Positions 35,955 to 43,730 of a stretch of 43,730 nt of DNA are shown here, piece by piece. The stretch is from a virus (lineage: Duplodnaviria > Heunggongvirae > Uroviricota > Caudoviricetes). How positions within the stretch are numbered: the first letter of the stretch is position 1; each line of letters opens with the position of its first letter. The translations under genes and the position numbers were made by a program. The stretch lies in the IMG/VR virus record IMGVR_UViG_646311924_000020; one strand, given 5' to 3'. A model generated the notes under the pieces. That model was not told the origin of the DNA and did no database searches. It saw only the letters and a list, made by a program, of their open reading frames with translations.

Positions 35955-36000
35955 TCGCTTTTCAGCGACGTAGGACGAATGTCCGTTGTTACAAAGAGCG
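35955..36000 (-). promoter_or_regulatory. candidate nutR (boxA plus boxB)
   Basis: Minus strand just after cro: CGCUCUUUGUAACAACG (boxA-like), a small hairpin GGAC-AUUC-GUCC, then UCGC-UGAAAA-GCGA (GAAAA loop as in lambda boxB). Nearly the same arrangement recurs upstream of N. Confidence 0.5.
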
Positions 36001-36010
36001 GATCCGCTTA

Positions 36011-36226
36011 TTAAGCGGCTTTGTGTTCCGGCGGGAACACGTCATCAAGACTGACTTTTGCGCCTAACTTGTTTAGGCACGCAACAAGAGCACGGCATGT
36101 TTTAAGGTCTGGGAAGCGACGACCAGATTCCCAATGTCCGATAGCTCCCTGTGTGCATCCAACTGCCTTAGCAAGTGTTGTTTGAGAGATATTCAGTGAC
36201 TCTCGATATTTTCGTAGGTTGCTCAT
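36011..36226 (-). CDS. cro: Cro-like repressor (HTH_XRE)
   Basis: 71 aa from ATG 36226 (MSNLRKYRESLNISQTTLAKAVGCTQGAIGHWESGRR...), GGAGGG RBS, divergent from cI. Confidence 0.8.
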   Translation of the reverse strand: MSNLRKYRESLNISQTTLAKAVGCTQGAIGHWESGRRFPDLKTCRALVACLNKLGAKVSLDDVFPPEHKAA

Positions 36227-36252
36227 ATGCCCTCCATAGTAACCATAACGCA

Positions 36253-36281
36253 ATAATACGATATGTACTTTTAGAATGCAA
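36253..36281 (-). promoter_or_regulatory. candidate pR promoter (-35 TTGCAT, 17 bp spacer, -10 TATTAT)
   Basis: On minus strand upstream of cro; spacer and -10 overlap the 15-mer AGTACATATCGTATT, an operator-like motif also present at pL. Confidence 0.45.
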
Positions 36282-36343
36282 ACAAAAAATACATCTTGTG
36301 CATGGATGATTTTAGTACAGAGCGTAATAATAAGGGTATGAAA

Positions 36344-36997
36344 ATGAAATGGTATGAACTGGCTAGATCCAGAATGAAAGAGCTCGGCATAACTCAAGAG
36401 AAGTTAGCCGAAGAGCTTGGTATGACGCAGGGTGGAATTGGTCACTGGTTGCGCGGATCTCGTCATCCATCTCTTGACGAGATTGGTGTGGTGTTTAAAT
36501 ACCTTGGTATTGATAACGTCTCATTCAACCACGACGGTACATTTTCACCTGTTGGCGAATACTCATCTGCCCCCGTTAAAAAACAATATGAGTACCCTGT
36601 TTTTTCTCATGTTCAGGCCGGTATGTTCTCGCCTGAGCTTAGAACCTTTACCAAAGGTGATGCGGAGAGATGGGTCAGCACAACCAAAAAAGCCAGTGAT
36701 TGTGCGTTTTGGCTTGAAGTTGAAGGTAATTCCATGACCGCGCCAACAGGATCCAAGCCAAGCTTTCCTGACGGGATGTTAATTCTCGTTGACCCTGAGC
36801 AGGCTGTTGAGCCAGGTGATTTCTGCATAGCCAGACTTGGTGGTGACGAGTTTACCTTCAAGAAACTGATCAGGGATAGCGGTCAGGTGTTCCTACAACC
36901 ACTAAACCCGCAATATCCAATGATTCCATGCAATGATAGCTGTTCCGTAGTAGGGAAAGTTATCGCCAGCCAGTGGCCTGAAGAGACATTTAGTTAA
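36344..36997 (+). CDS. cI: CI-type prophage repressor (N-terminal HTH, C-terminal S24 LexA-like domain)
   Basis: HTH segment ([23 protein letters not shown]) and S24 motifs (GNSMTAP...FKKL); start chosen at ATG 36344 (7 nt after AAGGG); ORF-track start 36296 is a TTG. Confidence 0.85.
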
Positions 36998-37029
36998 CAG
37001 CCTCACCACTCTAAAACACACAACAATAA

Positions 37030-37057
37030 CCCGACCTTAGCGTCGGGTTTTCTTTTT
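37030..37057 (+). terminator. intrinsic terminator after cI
   Basis: Hairpin CCCGAC-CTTAGC-GTCGGG followed by TTTTCTTTTT, 33 nt after the cI stop. Confidence 0.6.
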
Positions 37058-37123
37058 CCAAAATATAAACCCATTAAATACAAAGCGTTATAAAAAACTA
37101 AACCATATTTAGAACATTTTGTA

Positions 37124-37152
37124 TTGACTCAGTAAAGTACACATCGTACTAT
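37124..37152 (+). promoter_or_regulatory. candidate pL promoter (-35 TTGACT, 17 bp spacer, -10 TACTAT) with overlapping operator-like 15-mer
   Basis: Spacer and -10 contain AGTACACATCGTACT (37136-37150), an inverted-repeat-containing 15-mer near-identical to the one at pR. Confidence 0.5.
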
Positions 37153-37198
37153 TTAGCTATCAGCAGGAAGCTGGAAGCCAAACGGAACAGACTGGCAG

Positions 37199-37244
37199 GC
37201 TCTTTAAACAACGTCGAACACTCGACTACGTGGCTGAAAAGCCA
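37199..37244 (+). promoter_or_regulatory. candidate nutL (boxA plus boxB)
   Basis: GCTCTTTAAACAACG (boxA-like), small hairpin GTCGA-ACAC-TCGAC, then TGGC-TGAAAA-GCCA (GAAAA loop); located between pL and N. Confidence 0.5.
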
Positions 37245-37342
37245 GATCACCCAACCACATAAGCTGTGGGATGCAATGCCGAAGCAACCGTCTCAGGAGG
37301 GGCTTCGAGATTGCATCGCCAAAGTTTATTCGGGAGGAATCT

Positions 37343-37615
37343 ATGTCCAGAAAAACAGAATTTAAAGGAACCGCAGCTTCTCGCCGTAGAGCTCGTCGTG
37401 CAAATCTGCAAAGTCAGGAGGCGATCAGCTCCGACAAGCTACACAGGCCAACCCCTTCACGAGTGGTCTTGCAATGCAAGCGCAAACCAGCAATGAGAGC
37501 AGAAGTGATAACTCTGACAACGTTGACCAGAAAATATGAAGGTTCAACTTGTCTTCCGAACGTAGCCATTTACGCGGCAGGCTACCGGAAATCAAAACAA
37601 CTGACGGCGAGATGA
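37343..37615 (+). CDS. N: N-type antitermination protein (arginine-rich motif)
   Basis: 90 aa from ATG 37343 (GGGAGG RBS): MSRKTEFKGTAASRRRARRANLQSQEA...; first gene after pL and the nut-like site. Confidence 0.7.
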   Translation: MSRKTEFKGTAASRRRARRANLQSQEAISSDKLHRPTPSRVVLQCKRKPAMRAEVITLTTLTRKYEGSTCLPNVAIYAAGYRKSKQLTAR

Positions 37616-37743
37616 CTTGTGTTGGTCGCCAGAAAATGAAATTAGGCAGCAAACCACTTATTTGAGGTGAGATATGGAAGAAGAATTTGAAGAGTTCGAA
37701 GAGCATCCGCAGGATGTGATGGAACAATACCAGGACTATCCGT

Positions 37744-37944
37744 ATGACTACGACTACTGATAAAAATCAATGGTGTGGACAATTCAAGCGATGCAATGGA
37801 TGCAAGCTGCAATCGGAATGCATGGTTAAGCCTGAAGAAATGTTTCCTGTAATGGAAGATGGGAAATATGTCGATAAATGGGCAATACGAACGACGGCAA
37901 TGATTGCCAGAGAACTTGGTAAACTGAACAACAAGGCTGCCTGA
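37744..37944 (+). CDS. ral: Ral (restriction alleviation protein)
   Basis: 66 aa MTTTTDKNQWCGQFKRCNGCKLQSECMVKPEEMFPVMEDGKYVDKWAIRTTAMIARELGKLNNKAA, matches recalled lambda Ral. Confidence 0.85.
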   Translation: MTTTTDKNQWCGQFKRCNGCKLQSECMVKPEEMFPVMEDGKYVDKWAIRTTAMIARELGKLNNKAA

Positions 37945-37962
37945 TGGCGGCCTTTATTTTTG
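37935..37962 (+). terminator. intrinsic terminator overlapping 3' end of ral
   Basis: Hairpin GGCTGCC-TGAT-GGCGGCC (one G-U pair) followed by TTTATTTTTGG. Confidence 0.5.
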
Positions 37963-38009
37963 GCATAAACAACAGAATAAACACAGCACTGAATTATTTG
38001 AGGTGAGAT

Positions 38010-38480
38010 ATGACAAAATCATGGAGCGTACCTTTTCCTGAATCAGAAACTGAACATGATGGAATGCCTGTTTTCTGGAGATTCCAAGCGACAGTTGAAG
38101 AAGATGGAATCAAAATATTCGCACTTCAATATATAGCTTTTCATCAGACAGATCATTATGCATGGTTGGTTCCTGCGCATTGGATTGTTAATTTTAAACC
38201 AGCACCAAATCAGTGGTTACAGGAATGGAAACAAAGGAGAAATAGATATGCAATTAAGAAAGTAGCAAAAAATGCCGAAAGATCTTTTGCATTCCCGACG
38301 AAGAAACTTGCCATTGAAAGTTTATTGCGCCGGAAGAAGTACCATTTAATGAGAATCAAACAAGATTTGGCTGTTGTATCAACTCTTGTTGATGGGATGA
38401 AGAATATTGATACATCAATACCAGATATTGAATATAACTTTGGACACAACCAAGAAACAGAAAATTGGGTGTTTTATTAG
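38010..38480 (+). CDS. hypothetical protein (156 aa), accessory gene between ral and cIII
   Basis: AT-rich ORF with strong RBS GAGGTGAGATATG, no predicted membrane segment; no family recognised. Position corresponds to P22 gene 17 / lambda sieB locus. Confidence 0.55.
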   Translation: MTKSWSVPFPESETEHDGMPVFWRFQATVEEDGIKIFALQYIAFHQTDHYAWLVPAHWIVNFKPAPNQWLQEWKQRRNRYAIKKVAKNAERSFAFPTKKLAIESLLRRKKYHLMRIKQDLAVVSTLVDGMKNIDTSIPDIEYNFGHNQETENWVFY

Positions 38481-38584
38481 TACGAATAAGCACTGTGTAT
38501 TCATTCCAACGAGTGAATACACGGAGCAATGTCGCTCGTAACTAAACAGGAGCCGACTTGTTCTGATTATTGGAAATCTTCTTT

Positions 38585-38610
38585 GCCCTCCAGTGTGAGG
38601 GCCTTTTTAT
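38585..38610 (+). terminator. intrinsic terminator after the 156 aa gene
   Basis: Hairpin GCCCTC-CAGTGT-GAGGGC followed by CTTTTTAT. Confidence 0.65.
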
Positions 38611-38674
38611 ATGCATACCAATAACGCTTCACTCGAGGCGTTTTCGTTATGCAATCAAACAGAAGGAGCATCCT

Positions 38675-38845
38675 ATGCAACAGTTCGCTATTGCAGGGGC
38701 GGCATCGGTTCGCCCTTTCAACCCGATTTTATCGGTACAGCATTCACGAAAAAATATTTTAACCGGAGCAGACTTTAAACAACCAAGAATGAAAAGCTTG
38801 CTCGAAAAGCTTTGGGATATTTTGAAACAACAAGGCCGCCCATGA
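38675..38845 (+). CDS. cIII: CIII-like protein (FtsH inhibitor)
   Basis: 56 aa from ATG 38675 (AAGGAG RBS): MQQFAIAGAASVRPFNPILSVQHSRKNILTGADFKQPRMKSLLEKLWDILKQQGRP; N-terminal MQ-AIAG and central amphipathic LLEKLWDIL resemble lambda CIII. Confidence 0.7.
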   Translation: MQQFAIAGAASVRPFNPILSVQHSRKNILTGADFKQPRMKSLLEKLWDILKQQGRP

Positions 38846-39012
38846 GTTTTACAGATAACTGGTCAGACGAAGAATTCATTCGTCAGATGAAAGAATTAAT
38901 CGGTAACGAAGGAGATATTCATGTCACTTGCAACCACCGTGAAGGAGAGCAAGTTACAGAGACGCATGTACACGCAGCAGGCGTTAATGTATCGCCAGAA
39001 GGGAGATCGTGA
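38842..39012 (+). CDS. hypothetical protein (56 aa), kil position
   Basis: ATG overlaps the cIII stop (ATGA); small acidic protein; function by position only. Confidence 0.4.
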   Translation: MSFTDNWSDEEFIRQMKELIGNEGDIHVTCNHREGEQVTETHVHAAGVNVSPEGRS

Positions 39013-39101
39013 AGGTGTTCGCGTATTTTTAAATGCGGCAAAGACTGAAGTATTAAATCAGCGTTATTTCCTTGGGCCATGTCCATTCTGAGAACAATCA
39101 T

Positions 39102-39707
39102 ATGAGCAAAGAATTTTACGCAAGACTGGCAGCTATTCAGGAAAATCTGAACGCGCCCAAGAATCAGTACAACTCATTCGGTAAATATAAATACAGAAGC
39201 TGCGAAGACATTCTTGAAGGCGTTAAGCCGTTACTGAATGGTCTGTTTTTATCAATCAGCGATGAAGTTGTGTTGATTGGTAATCGGTATTACGTGAAAG
39301 CCACGGCAACTATTACCGATGGCGAAAACAGTCATACGGCAACCGCTCTTGCACGAGAGGAAGAAAGCAAGAAAGGAATGGATTCTGCACAAGTTACGGG
39401 AGCTACAAGCTCTTATGCACGCAAGTATTGCCTCAATGGTTTGTTCGGCATTGATGATGCGAAAGATGCAGATACAGACGAGCATAAACATCAGCAGAAC
39501 GCAGCAGCAAAGCAATCAAAACCATCACCTACACCTGAACAGGTTCTAAAAGCATTCACTGACGCAGCATTGCAGAAAAACACCGTAGAAGAGCTTAAAC
39601 AGGCGTTCGCCAAAGCGTGGAAGATGCTCGAAGGCACACCGGAGCAGCACAAAGCGCAGGACGTTTACAACATCAGACGAGACGAATTAGAAGGAGCGGC
39701 TGCTTAA
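39102..39707 (+). CDS. erf: Erf (essential recombination function, single-strand annealing protein)
   Basis: From ATG 39102: MSKEFYARLAAIQENLNAPKNQYNSFGKYKYRSCEDILEGVKPLLNGLFLSISDEVVLIGNRYYVKATATITDGENSH..., matches recalled P22 Erf. Confidence 0.95.
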   Translation: MSKEFYARLAAIQENLNAPKNQYNSFGKYKYRSCEDILEGVKPLLNGLFLSISDEVVLIGNRYYVKATATITDGENSHTATALAREEESKKGMDSAQVTGATSSYARKYCLNGLFGIDDAKDADTDEHKHQQNAAAKQSKPSPTPEQVLKAFTDAALQKNTVEELKQAFAKAWKMLEGTPEQHKAQDVYNIRRDELEGAAA

Positions 39708-40090
39708 TGGCACATTCGATTACTGTAAGACTAAACAAGCCCGCAAGAGAGTTTCAGGCCGGGGAAAATATCGGATTCAACATCCGTGCTGGCGTTCAGT
39801 ATTACGATCGCCAGACAAAAAAGAAAGAATGGACAAACTACAACGCCGTTGTATTTGCCAAGCCGGGAGCGCAAGCGGATTACTACCGTAGTGTTCTTGT
39901 TGAAGGTGGCATTGTAGAAATTACCGGAGAAAACATCAGGGTTGATGTTTATCAGGGGCAAAATGGTCAATCAATCACTCTTGAATTACTGAATGCAAAG
40001 ATTGGATTTGCAGCTTCAGGAAATGGCCCGCAGCAGCAAAGTAGTAACCAGCAGAACACCCCTGTATACGACGATTCCATCCCATTCTGA
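39707..40090 (+). CDS. hypothetical protein (127 aa), immediately downstream of erf
   Basis: ATG overlaps erf stop (TAATG); MAHSITVRLNKPAREFQAGENIGFNIRAGVQYYDRQTKKKEWTNYNAVVFAKPG...; function unknown. Confidence 0.55.
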   Translation: MAHSITVRLNKPAREFQAGENIGFNIRAGVQYYDRQTKKKEWTNYNAVVFAKPGAQADYYRSVLVEGGIVEITGENIRVDVYQGQNGQSITLELLNAKIGFAASGNGPQQQSSNQQNTPVYDDSIPF

Positions 40091-40113
40091 TTTAGAAAAA
40101 TAAGGATTTAATT

Positions 40114-40407
40114 ATGCCAGCGCCTCTGTATGGTGCGGATGACCCGCGCCGCTGTTCCGGCAATTCCGTATCGGAGGTGCTGGATAAATTCAGGAAAAAT
40201 TACGACCGGATAATGTCGCTACCGCAGGAAACAAAAGAGGAAAAGGAATTTCGCCACTGCGTATGGCTTGCAGAGAAAGAAGAACGCGAGCGAATTTACC
40301 AGACATCAATCCGACCATTCCGCAAAGCCACATATACCCACTTCCCTGAAATTGACCCGCGCCTGCGTAATTACCGCTCACGCTATGGCGCTATCAGTAA
40401 TAACTGA
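40114..40407 (+). CDS. possible Abc2-like anti-RecBCD protein (97 aa)
   Basis: Size and position (second gene after erf) fit P22 abc2; I cannot verify sequence identity from memory. Confidence 0.4.
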
Positions 40408-40417
40408 GGAATTTACC

Positions 40418-40585
40418 ATGAGAGGACTTGCATACAATCCCAGCATTCTTCCGGCAGAAATGATTATTCGCCAGCGCGTAAAGCCAATGCCATCGAGAGA
40501 GGAATTACTTAAGAGAAATTCTTTTCCGTCAGTAAATCAAAACAAATATCTGAATGCGATGTTGCGTAAAGGAGGCAAGCAGTGA
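40418..40585 (+). CDS. hypothetical protein (55 aa)
   Basis: ATG 40418 after GAGGA; operon-strand small ORF. Confidence 0.35.
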
Positions 40586-40881
40586 GTGTATGTCTTATTG
40601 ATAAACGTCGACGTGGGCAACAAATACCATCTGTTGAAATGCCGAATCACACATGGTTTTGCGTACTTGATATCGATGGTATGGATACGTTGGTTGACAC
40701 TCGTCATTACTGCGATACCGCAACAGCTACTCCGGCGAAAGCAAAGAAAATTGCTGCTCTGATAGAAAACTGGACTCCACCTGATGGTTGGTGCAATGGG
40801 AATGATCGAGATTGGCATGAAAAAATGAAGGGCTATATCTGCGATTTCTTACGTAAATGCAACGGATTCAGGGTGATGTGA
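40582..40881 (+). CDS. hypothetical protein (99 aa)
   Basis: GTG start overlapping previous stop; Cys/Trp-containing small protein. Confidence 0.45.
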
Positions 40882-40882
40882 C

Positions 40883-41437
40883 ATGAACAAGATTGACTAT
40901 CAGGCACTGCGTGCCAAGGCAGAAAAAGCAACGTGTGGTGAGTGGTCGCTCGAATATGGAGAGGAGAGATTTGATGCTGGTGATGCGCTAATTCATCGTG
41001 AAGTTGTTGGATATCTTCCCATTTGCAGAATTGAAGGAGCGCATCCTGAAAGCGGTTTCGATGAAGATTTCCAGATGGAACAGCAGGCCAATGCTGAATT
41101 TATTGCTGCCTTTAATCCAAAGGTTGCTTTGGCACTGCTGGATGAACGGGAAAGAAACCAGCAATACATCAAACGCCGCGACCAGGAGAACGAGGATATT
41201 GCGCTAACGGTAGGGAAGCTGCGCGTTGAGCTTGAAGCAGAAAAACAGCGGGCAAAAGTTCTATTTATGGAAAATGCTCGGCTTAAGTCAGGCATAGCCG
41301 GTCTGATACACCTCGGTATTCGATATGCAGATGTTGAGGTCATGAAAATTGCTGGAGATGCCCAGCTTTCTACCCCATGCACTGACAGCATCATAAACAG
41401 CATTGCAACAGGCATTCGCATCAAAGGAGGTGAGTAA
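40883..41437 (+). CDS. hypothetical coiled-coil protein, possibly Ead/Ea22-like
   Basis: 184 aa with central coiled-coil (RRDQENEDIALTVGKLRVELEAEKQRAKVLFMENARLK); resembles Ead/Ea22-like prophage proteins by memory only. Confidence 0.45.
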   Translation: MNKIDYQALRAKAEKATCGEWSLEYGEERFDAGDALIHREVVGYLPICRIEGAHPESGFDEDFQMEQQANAEFIAAFNPKVALALLDERERNQQYIKRRDQENEDIALTVGKLRVELEAEKQRAKVLFMENARLKSGIAGLIHLGIRYADVEVMKIAGDAQLSTPCTDSIINSIATGIRIKGGE

Positions 41438-41613
41438 TGCGTGTGGCATGTATCGGCTTGTTACCGTACCCGACTCGTTTTTGGGCTTCTGCGCTAATTG
41501 CAAAGCCGCATGTCCTGATGGCTGACAACATCATCCCGGCACCAAAGCGCCGCCATACCGGTATTGCATCGGCACGACGAGCAGCAAAGAAACGCAGGAG
41601 AGCAAAACGATGA
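41437..41613 (+). CDS. hypothetical protein (58 aa, basic C-terminus)
   Basis: Translationally coupled small ORF (TAATG start, ATGA stop overlap). Confidence 0.3.
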   Translation: MRVACIGLLPYPTRFWASALIAKPHVLMADNIIPAPKRRHTGIASARRAAKKRRRAKR

Positions 41614-41798
41614 AAAACCGTAAAGCAAAGATTCTGTTAGTTCGTAGAAACGCTCCTGGCGTCTGGCAGTGGGTGAGACTCAGCAACCGACGGGTGGGGT
41701 TAATGAAACATTACGGGATGATGGATTGTGGTTTTTGCAAAAAGCCCAGCGCGGCGCAAAACCGCTGGAAAAACCACTTGCGTACTAAAGGAGAGTGA
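41610..41798 (+). CDS. hypothetical protein (62 aa)
   Basis: Start overlaps previous stop; basic, Cys-containing. Confidence 0.3.
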   Translation: MKNRKAKILLVRRNAPGVWQWVRLSNRRVGLMKHYGMMDCGFCKKPSAAQNRWKNHLRTKGE

Positions 41799-41799
41799 T

Positions 41800-42009
41800 A
41801 TGGCTATTGCCGCAAGTTACACCATGCATCTCTATTGTGACTGCCGCCAGTGTACGGAAGGTGTATATCCAGTGCCAGACTTCGGAGAGTATATCGGCAC
41901 GTCATGGGCTGGTTGTGCAAAAGAGGCGCGTAAGGATGGCTGGCGAATAAGCAAAGACAAAACACGTGCTTTTGCGCCTGGGCATAAAGTTTTGAGGATT
42001 AACAAATGA
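41800..42009 (+). CDS. hypothetical Cys-rich protein (69 aa)
   Basis: ATG 41800 after AAGGAGAG; MAIAASYTMHLYCDCRQCTEGVYPVPDFGEYIG... Confidence 0.35.
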   Translation: MAIAASYTMHLYCDCRQCTEGVYPVPDFGEYIGTSWAGCAKEARKDGWRISKDKTRAFAPGHKVLRINK

Positions 42010-42809
42010 CCACTATTACCAGAGAACAAGCTCTGAAAATTATTGAGGCAGCCGATGAGGTTATTAGTGCGCTTGCCGGAACTAACGAGGATGTTCACCC
42101 TGGTAGCGATAACATGCTACGCCTGTGGGATGACCTGAATGACCGTTACGCGCCGCCGGAAGTTGTGCGTGAGCTGGCACGGATTGCGCTGGCATCGTTG
42201 GAAGCAAAACCAATAGGTGCATTCCACATTGCAGAACAGCAAGTTGACGGCACAAGTGACTACCTCAAGGATGGAGAATGGCCTATTGATAATGGGACAA
42301 TTGAAGTATACGCCGCCCCTCCAGTGCCAGTAGTACCTGAAGAAAAACCAATGCCTAACCCTCTTAGCATGTACGCGGTCGATGCTGTTGCCGCTATTGC
42401 AGAGGTGAGAGGCTGGAACGCCTGCCGCGCCGCCATGCTTCATGGTGCCGAACCTGTAAGCCAAACTTACAAGTCACAACACACGCAGTTTGAACAAGTT
42501 GCTGACCTCTACGAAATGCAATTTGATGACGGTCGCACTTGTGCCTTTCACACTGATGCGCAAAAGGCTGCGCAATGGCTTCAGGCATGCGACGGAAACA
42601 GGGTTCAGGAATACGTGAAGCTGGAGCGATTGCGTAATGCGCTATCGGGCAACTCTCCGGTAACTCCGGATGGTTGGGTTATGGTGCCGAAGGAACCAAC
42701 TCAGGCCATGATTAAAGCGTGGCTATCAGAGATTGCTAACTTTCGCGGTCATGCTGCTGGTTACAGGGCTGCTCTTGAGGCAGCACCACAGGAGGTTAAC
42801 CGTGGCTAA
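42006..42809 (+). CDS. hypothetical protein (267 aa)
   Basis: Longest ORF of the early accessory region; no family recognised. Confidence 0.55.
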   Translation: MTTITREQALKIIEAADEVISALAGTNEDVHPGSDNMLRLWDDLNDRYAPPEVVRELARIALASLEAKPIGAFHIAEQQVDGTSDYLKDGEWPIDNGTIEVYAAPPVPVVPEEKPMPNPLSMYAVDAVAAIAEVRGWNACRAAMLHGAEPVSQTYKSQHTQFEQVADLYEMQFDDGRTCAFHTDAQKAAQWLQACDGNRVQEYVKLERLRNALSGNSPVTPDGWVMVPKEPTQAMIKAWLSEIANFRGHAAGYRAALEAAPQEVNRG

Positions 42810-43086
42810 CCTGCAACTTGCCGTCAAAGGTGAATACTTCGATGCCATGATTCGCGGAGAGAAAACAGAAGAGTATCGCCTGTGTAATGACTACTGGAAT
42901 AAGCGAATTATGTTCCGGGAGTATGACCGCCTGATTATCACAAAGGGATATCCGAAGCGCGACGACTCCAGCCGCAGAATAGACGTCCCGTATGACGGAT
43001 ATGAAATCAAGACAATCACACATCCCCACTTCGGCGATAAACCGGTAAAGGTGTTCGCGATAAATGTGAATATCGGCAATGAATAA
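42802..43086 (+). CDS. ASCH-domain-like protein (94 aa)
   Basis: GTG 42802 after GGAGG; VANLQLAVKGEYFDAMIRGEKTEEYRL... resembles ASCH/PUA-like small proteins (from memory). Confidence 0.45.
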   Translation: MANLQLAVKGEYFDAMIRGEKTEEYRLCNDYWNKRIMFREYDRLIITKGYPKRDDSSRRIDVPYDGYEIKTITHPHFGDKPVKVFAINVNIGNE

Positions 43087-43145
43087 CAACCCTCGCATTT
43101 GCGGGGATTTCTTTTATCTGAACTCGCTACGGCGAGTTTTGTTTT

Positions 43146-43457
43146 ATGGAGATGATTATGGTCTGTTCAACATTCAACCATCTAACGTTACAGAAATACC
43201 AGCCAGACCCTGAAGATTTATGCTCACTGTGTGGCGGAAATCATGGTAAAGCCGCCATGATCGAATGTAATGACAAAATCCACATTTGCCTTAATTGCGT
43301 TGATGTCCTCGTTGATATCAAAAATGAGAGAGAAGATAAAAAGCGTAGCGAGGCTATTCGCGCCTTAGATTCATGGATGCGAGATGGGTATAGTGCTGCG
43401 CAAATTTATGACTTAGCAATATCAAAAGGCGAAATACCAGGAGTACGCATCGAATAA
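43146..43457 (+). CDS. hypothetical protein (103 aa), possible zinc-binding
   Basis: Contains CSLCGG...CNDKIHICLNC cysteine pattern. Confidence 0.5.
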   Translation: MEMIMVCSTFNHLTLQKYQPDPEDLCSLCGGNHGKAAMIECNDKIHICLNCVDVLVDIKNEREDKKRSEAIRALDSWMRDGYSAAQIYDLAISKGEIPGVRIE

Positions 43458-43497
43458 GACATAACCGATATTCGAATTGAAGAACTGAAAGAACACC

Positions 43498-43524
43498 AAG
43501 CCGCCTGATGGCGGTTTCTTTTTG
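43498..43524 (+). terminator. intrinsic terminator upstream of xis
   Basis: Hairpin (AAG)CCGCC-TGAT-GGCGG(TTT) followed by TTTCTTTTTG; shares the GCCTGATGGCGG core with the terminator at 37935-37962. Confidence 0.5.
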
Positions 43525-43538
43525 CCTGGAGAATTAAG

Positions 43539-43730
43539 ATGACCGATACCAGCCTGATTCCTGAGAAAGAAGTGATGAACAAGCTCGGTGTTTCATCACG
43601 TCAGACAATCTGGAACTATACCAAACGACACGGATTTCCGAAGCCAGTCAGAACCCACCCCAAATCATACCTTCGTGAAGCTGTTGAAGGGTGGATTCTT
43701 AACGGTGGCGTTAATCAGAAATGCTCCTGA
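43539..43730 (+). CDS. xis: excisionase / AlpA-family DNA-binding protein
   Basis: 63 aa, HTH-like segment (MNKLGVSSRQTIWNYTKRHGFPKPV); last gene before the window edge, where int is expected next. Confidence 0.6.
   Translation: MTDTSLIPEKEVMNKLGVSSRQTIWNYTKRHGFPKPVRTHPKSYLREAVEGWILNGGVNQKCS

Follow-up and report, generated by a model that had tools for sequence, protein, structure and literature searches.

An erf, ssb-like and abc2 recombination module within the early-left part of a lambdoid phage with a P22-like virion module

We consider a homologous-recombination module of three genes, erf, an ssb-like gene and abc2, in the viral record IMGVR_UViG_646311924_000020 (IMG/VR; 43,730 nucleotides, the whole of which is called the window below). 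The closest described systems are those of lambdoid phages. In phage P22 the genes are ordered arf-erf-abc1-abc2, and Abc2 attaches to RecC and does away with the Chi response; it is believed to divert the single-stranded DNA (ssDNA) that RecBCD produces to the recombinase of the phage instead of RecA (PMC9836394). The RecC-binding helical region of Abc2 comprises residues 3-66, and cryo-electron microscopy places Pro68 in the active site of the host PpiB (PMC9836394). In phage HK620 the order is hkaM-sak4-ssb(HK620)-abc2, and the gene in the "abc1 slot", first called abc1 on the strength of its position, turned out to encode a single-strand DNA-binding protein (SSB), as documented in 2018 (PMC5928155). 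A survey published in 2025 (Genome Res), which covered 325 lambdoid phages, describes a class of recombination (Rec) modules that consist of an anti-RecBCD protein, an SSB and an annealing protein, with no nuclease; the prototype is HK75 and the class counts 27 of the 325 phages (PMC12315714). The gp40 protein of HK97 has been named "SSB-1b" from its predicted structure (PMC12315714).

By the open reading frame (ORF) map and the sequence, the module in the window consists of three genes that lie close together and are all read along the + strand:

erf, positions 39102..39707, + strand: Erf-family single-strand annealing protein of 201 residues (PF04404, phrog_155 and identity to P22 Erf)
ssb-like gene (HK97 gp40 family, "SSB-1b"), positions 39707..40090, + strand: protein of 127 residues
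abc2, positions 40114..40407, + strand: anti-RecBCD protein 2, a RecC-binding RecBCD modifier of 97 residues (PF11043, phrog_656 and identity to P22 Abc2)

With erf, the ssb-like gene and abc2 contiguous, and no nuclease family found among the flanking genes scanned (Pfam/PHROG-type family scans), the module belongs to the "HK75" class. It is thus a module already known, and it does not depart from the class as described.

The positions of the genes, the overlap of the first two and the 23-nucleotide spacing before the third had been given by a first-pass annotation of the window, and they are exact. The erf gene begins with an ATG at 39102 and ends with a TAA at 39705-39707, and the ATG of the 127-residue gene (39707-39709) has one base in common with this stop. 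The resulting TAATG couples translation of this gene to that of erf. A Shine-Dalgarno sequence (GAAGGAG) lies 10 nucleotides upstream of this ATG, and the 23-nucleotide spacer before the abc2 ATG (40091-40113) contains TAAGGA. When homologous segments of IMG/VR loci are compared (120 distinct ones), the variable sites are distributed over codon positions 1/2/3 as 22/8/116 in the N-terminal part of erf, 28/27/91 in the ssb-like gene and 45/40/75 in abc2. With most of the variation at third codon positions, the three ORFs are real genes under purifying selection.

We turn to the 97-residue protein, for which Abc2 had been offered as a possible identity and, with it, the hijacking of RecBCD. The protein matches PF11043 (Anti-RecBCD_p2) over its full length (residues 1-97 of 97, 213 bits, E = 4.3e-64) as well as phrog_656 (E = 7.8e-55), and it is identical to P22 Abc2 at 91 of 97 positions (94%). 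In the alignment with P22 the proline that engages PpiB, Pro68, is kept, and within residues 1-66 only L32R, I50V and A65S differ. With the full-length family match and the 94% identity the suggestion holds, and at the level of sequence Abc2, and hence a predicted hijacking of RecBCD, is confirmed for the phage of the window. The Chi site (GCTGGTGG) occurs 0 times on both strands of the whole window, where 1.36 occurrences are expected by chance; this is weakly consistent with a phage that carries an anti-RecBCD gene.

The identity of Erf itself is equally well founded. The protein matches PF04404 over residues 5-143 (152.1 bits, with a cut-off of 25; E = 1.5e-44) and phrog_155 (E = 1.6e-57), and its homology to P22 Erf extends over the full length (E = 5e-110). 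To call it near-identical to P22 Erf, as the first-pass annotation did, is an overstatement, however, since the two proteins share 152 of 205 positions (74%) and the identity is uneven, with 91% over residues 1-135 and about 31% over the last 49 or so residues. The N-terminal annealing and oligomerisation domain is thus P22-like, while the C-terminal 49 or so residues belong to another sequence type.

The change in the Erf tail coincides with a larger difference from P22, which is best described as one further feature:

apparent mosaic substitution cassette, positions 39563..40103, + strand: an Erf C-terminal tail and the ssb-like gene in place of the Erf C-terminal tail and abc1 of P22

The blastn alignment of the window with P22 is confined to 39102-39562 (79%) and 40104-40571 (85%), which leaves an unaligned gap of 541 bp, and the mosaic junction falls inside erf, where the C-terminal tail begins. 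From this comparison, the abc1 and Erf C-terminal tail of P22 appear to have been exchanged as one mosaic cassette for another Erf tail together with the ssb-like gene. A strict co-variation, in which the window-type Erf tail would go with the ssb-like gene and the P22-type tail with Abc1, was considered and rejected, since it is broken by loci with a canonical SSB of both tail types: a canonical SSB comes after the P22-type tail in epsilon34 and mEpX2, and after the window-type tail in loci L095-L101. Loci L088-L092, which have a P22-like Erf N-terminus and linker, yet a window-type tail and the ssb-like gene, fit the co-variation in part. As each of the two tails can thus be paired with a canonical SSB, a specific contact between the Erf tail and the SSB is no more than a possibility. 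We also tried to follow co-occurrence in the phage collection by tblastn, using native and chimeric queries made of an Erf tail plus Abc1 or the ssb-like protein. The counts at "at least 80% coverage" do not measure co-occurrence and are unusable, because tblastn carried its alignments across the TAATG junction without a change of frame and returned single-piece matches of 84-86% coverage.

What, then, is the 127-residue protein? Its kinship with SSBs emerged only from PHROGs, profile-profile and fold comparison, whereas single-sequence and profile searches against Pfam, NCBIfam and PDB found nothing significant (no Pfam match at E<=0.1, PF00436 included, no NCBIfam match, and nothing among the PDB sequences). 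The protein matches PHROG 44 (phrog_44, "single strand DNA binding protein") with E = 1.6e-27, and hhalign relates its family profile to a PF00436 SSB with a probability of 93% and E = 3.2e-7. The AlphaFold2 model is an OB-like all-beta barrel with a pLDDT (predicted local distance difference test) score of 83.9, in which residues 107-121 fall below 50, and the named fold matches in BFVD are almost all phage SSBs. The leading fold matches of the protein include PriB. The database search returned 305 homologues with a conserved core from Enterobacterales prophages and phages, a few of them labelled SSB or "HK97 gp40" by their sources. Aligning 36 diverse homologues reveals a conserved core of about 100 residues, a Q/P/G-rich linker of very variable length and a conserved D-D-x-I-P-F tip. 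In the window protein the corresponding parts are an OB-fold core (about 1-103), a Q/N/P-rich disordered linker (about 104-121) and the acidic tip YDDSIPF, which is found in 78 of the 83 intact variants.

The same architecture is that of the bacterial SSB (E. coli SSB; PF00436), in which an OB core is followed by a disordered linker rich in Q, P and G and by a tip that is both acidic and hydrophobic, DDDIPF there and DDSIPF here; the 127-residue protein differs in being shorter and too diverged for a match to PF00436 or to a PDB sequence. From the predicted fold and the architecture we infer an SSB of the bacterial type that has diverged strongly. Core homologues of this gp40 type, at about 50% identity, are also found in Vibrio phages (collection matches H46-H49, about 130 records), where they are annotated as OB-fold or SSB proteins and adjoin an exonuclease, not Erf. 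The records treat the gene unevenly: in HF4s (L003, 3366-3761) a frameshift breaks it in two, labelled "ssb protein" and a 36-residue ORF, in two IMG/VR loci (L055 and L059) it is truncated, and in the HK022 RefSeq record it is left unannotated.

The distribution of the module is wide. It is found at 96-97% DNA identity in HK542, mEp213/mEp043, HK022, HK446, HK633, HK544, HK97-like phages and many Shiga toxin (Stx) phages, and the HK542 annotation describes its middle gene as "similar to Gp40 of HK97". A first search for related loci returned only those with Erf 99-100% identical, and the use of P22 Erf as query then supplied diversity. The exact order erf-ssb-abc2 is present in 89 of the 99 distinct IMG/VR erf loci; among the others, a few combine a canonical SSB, a DnaQ-like exonuclease and a divergent Abc2, and those of the P22 type have abc1-abc2. 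One variant Rec module (L095, 3110-4981 of IMGVR_UViG_2906144441_000003) encodes an Erf with the window-type tail, a canonical SSB (PF00436), an exonuclease, Abc2 and a Dam methylase. Its exonuclease is of the DnaQ/Rv2179c-like 3'-5' type (PF16473), and its Abc2 is a divergent protein of 94 residues that has no Pfam match and matches phrog_656 with E = 8.6e-32. The placement of a DnaQ-like exonuclease between ssb and abc2 is common to L095, epsilon34 and mEpX2.

Combining these observations, we propose, with a probability of roughly 0.85, that erf, the ssb-like gene and abc2 form the homologous-recombination module of a lambdoid phage or prophage with a P22-like virion and an HK97/HK022-like early-left region, and that the module works as follows. 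The three genes would be transcribed from the PL-type early-left operon. Abc2 would bind the RecC of the host RecBCD and make the enzyme blind to Chi and turn it away from the loading of RecA, as shown for P22 Abc2 and as the 94% identity suggests here. The modified RecBCD would then serve as the resection engine of the phage and yield ssDNA. The 127-residue SSB would coat this ssDNA, and its acidic tip may also engage Erf, host SSB-interacting proteins, or both; the fold, the architecture and the analogy with Red-beta/RecT-SSB and Sak4-SSB(HK620) point to these roles. Finally, Erf would anneal complementary single strands, as shown for P22 Erf and as the 91% identity of the N-terminal domain suggests here. 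A role for the SSB tip would have precedents, as the C-terminal 7-9 residues of SSB decide its compatibility with Red-beta and RecT (bioRxiv 10.1101/2020.04.14.041095), and HK620 Sak4 is stimulated by the SSB of its module only with the tail of that SSB present (PMC5928155).

Beyond this scheme, one may speculate that the gp40-type SSB is a functional replacement of Abc1. It would act through its host-like DDSIPF tip as an adaptor that passes ssDNA from the Abc2-modified RecBCD to Erf, or would compete with the host SSB for the interactome of the latter, and the swapped Erf tail would be its docking partner. We consider this unlikely, though if it were true, whatever the SSB substitutes for could serve to define the part that Abc1 plays in P22.

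It is improbable, too, that the OB-fold protein is no specific cofactor of Erf and serves mainly in phage replication or ssDNA protection, or as a DDSIPF decoy for the host SSB interactome. DDSIPF closely matches DDDIPF, the tip of enterobacterial SSBs, as in the canonical phage SSB of L095, and tips of the DDDIPF type are docking sites for many host proteins (bioRxiv 10.1101/2020.04.14.041095). The exonuclease that adjoins the Vibrio phage homologues in place of Erf, and the high rank of PriB among the fold matches, point the same way. Against this, the ssb-like gene is coupled to erf by TAATG and its position is kept in the 89 of 99 loci, lambdoid Rec modules are known to house SSB genes of several unrelated types (PMC12315714), and in HK620 the module SSB stimulates its recombinase in a tail-dependent manner (PMC5928155).

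The next question is whether the gene could be Abc1 itself, or a functional analogue of Abc1 that acts on RecBCD together with Abc2. The gene sits exactly in the abc1 slot between erf and abc2, and the P22-like late region of the window explains why the first-pass annotation expected P22 abc1 there. What Abc1 does in P22 is described as unknown (PMC9836394), which leaves room for a non-homologous analogue. The sequences argue strongly the other way. With P22 proteins taken from the P22 RefSeq record, BLASTP of the 127-residue protein against Abc1 gives no alignment even at E<=100, and tblastn of Abc1 over the whole window finds no homologue (best E 1.0). The families of P22 Abc1, PF08281 and phrog_323, are not matched by the 127-residue protein, which has an OB fold and an SSB tail in contrast to the helix-turn-helix of Abc1, and the like positional mis-call in HK620 has already been corrected (PMC5928155). 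We therefore regard Abc1 or an analogue as very improbable. The caveat that the last two genes might be a different accessory pair was thus right for the 127-residue gene, whose product is an OB-fold protein like SSB and belongs with HK97 gp40, and wrong for the 97-residue gene, which is Abc2. As to P22 Abc1 (L002, 26970-27254), it matches Sigma-70 region 4 (PF08281) with 27.0 bits, at a cut-off of 25.7, and phrog_323 ("transcriptional regulator, D5-like"), which suggests that it may be a DNA-binding helix-turn-helix protein rather than a direct binder of RecBCD.

That the 127-residue ORF is spurious or decaying, as its absence from the HK022 annotation, the frameshift in HF4s and the truncations in L055 and L059 might suggest, is effectively refuted by the 305 homologues with a conserved core, the confidently predicted fold and the codon-position bias, and the ORF is uninterrupted in 83 of 86 distinct variants.

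We now place the module in its surroundings, which are those usual for the early-left operon of lambdoid phages. The upstream side holds, also on the + strand, a repressor of the cI type, a PL-like promoter, an antiterminator resembling N, ral, a gene like cIII and small genes that occupy the Kil and Arf positions; downstream are a DUF2737 gene and then ea-type genes. The small neighbours are:

DUF2737 small gene, positions 40418..40585, + strand: 55 residues, homologue of P22 orf56 (PF10930, E = 9e-33; 79% identity to P22 orf56)
gene in the Arf position, positions 38921..39091, + strand: 56 residues (phrog_1723, E = 4.5e-34), ending 11 nucleotides before erf
ORF, positions 38842-39012, + strand: 56 residues (phrog_2123), overlapping 38921-39091 by 92 nucleotides in a different frame
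ORF, positions 38675-38845, + strand: 56 residues (phrog_550, "CIII anti-termination", E = 1e-22)

The DUF2737 gene is a conserved neighbour downstream of abc2. The gene at 38921-39091 has a homologue of 62 residues in L095, immediately upstream of erf there. It is no homologue of P22 Arf, which is a member of another family (phrog_2445). The overlapping ORF 38842-39012 was likewise tried as an Arf homologue and not accepted, as it offers only a 7-residue SDEEFI match (E = 0.012 in a single comparison). Where the two ORFs overlap, related loci vary at 20 sites, 13 of which are third codon positions of 38921-39091, so that this frame seems to be the selected one, and the 5' part of 38842-39012 has a third-position bias of its own (4/4/12). 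A homologue of the ORF at 38675-38845 is annotated "Kil" in HF4s, and the labels of small early-left genes are inconsistent between records. Three terminator-like hairpins on the + strand lie upstream of the module, one after ral (37933-37954) and two after a 156-residue phrog_1636 gene (38585-38602 and 38623-38642). Their placement is consistent with N-dependent read-through being needed for the expression of erf-ssb-abc2. The Rfam scan of 36000-43730 returned no RNA family.

The late region encodes a P22-like virion of the CUS-3, Sf101 or phiv205-1 kind, with about 95% identity over parts of 1-25000, and the window as a whole reads as a mosaic in which a P22-like virion module is joined to an HK97/HK022/Stx-phage-like early region. 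To compare the known systems in turn, the Rec modules of HK97, HK022, HK542 and mEp213 agree with that of the window in all three genes, in their order and in their spacing, and beyond the setting, a siphovirus in HK97-type phages and a phage with a CUS-3/Sf101-like virion module here, nothing else of substance differs. The P22 module is alike in the Erf N-terminal domain, Abc2, DUF2737/orf56 and the early-left position; it differs in having abc1 for the ssb-like gene, in its Erf tail, and in its arf, kil and c3 genes, for which tblastn with P22 Arf, Kil and C3 finds no homologue over the whole window. The HK620 module is alike in its plan of a recombinase, a non-canonical SSB in the abc1 slot and then Abc2, but its recombinase is Sak4 (RecA-like) instead of Erf and its SSB is of the DUF669 type ("SSB-2"), another family than that of gp40.

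As a textbook lambdoid cassette, which many of the sequenced coliphages and Stx phages carry in almost the same form, the module has little significance beyond its correct annotation. There lies its main value: the gene in the abc1 slot should read SSB-like, not Abc1, in place of the many records that call it hypothetical or skip it. In addition, the junction inside erf makes the family a convenient natural experiment on whether the Erf tail serves for interaction with partners.
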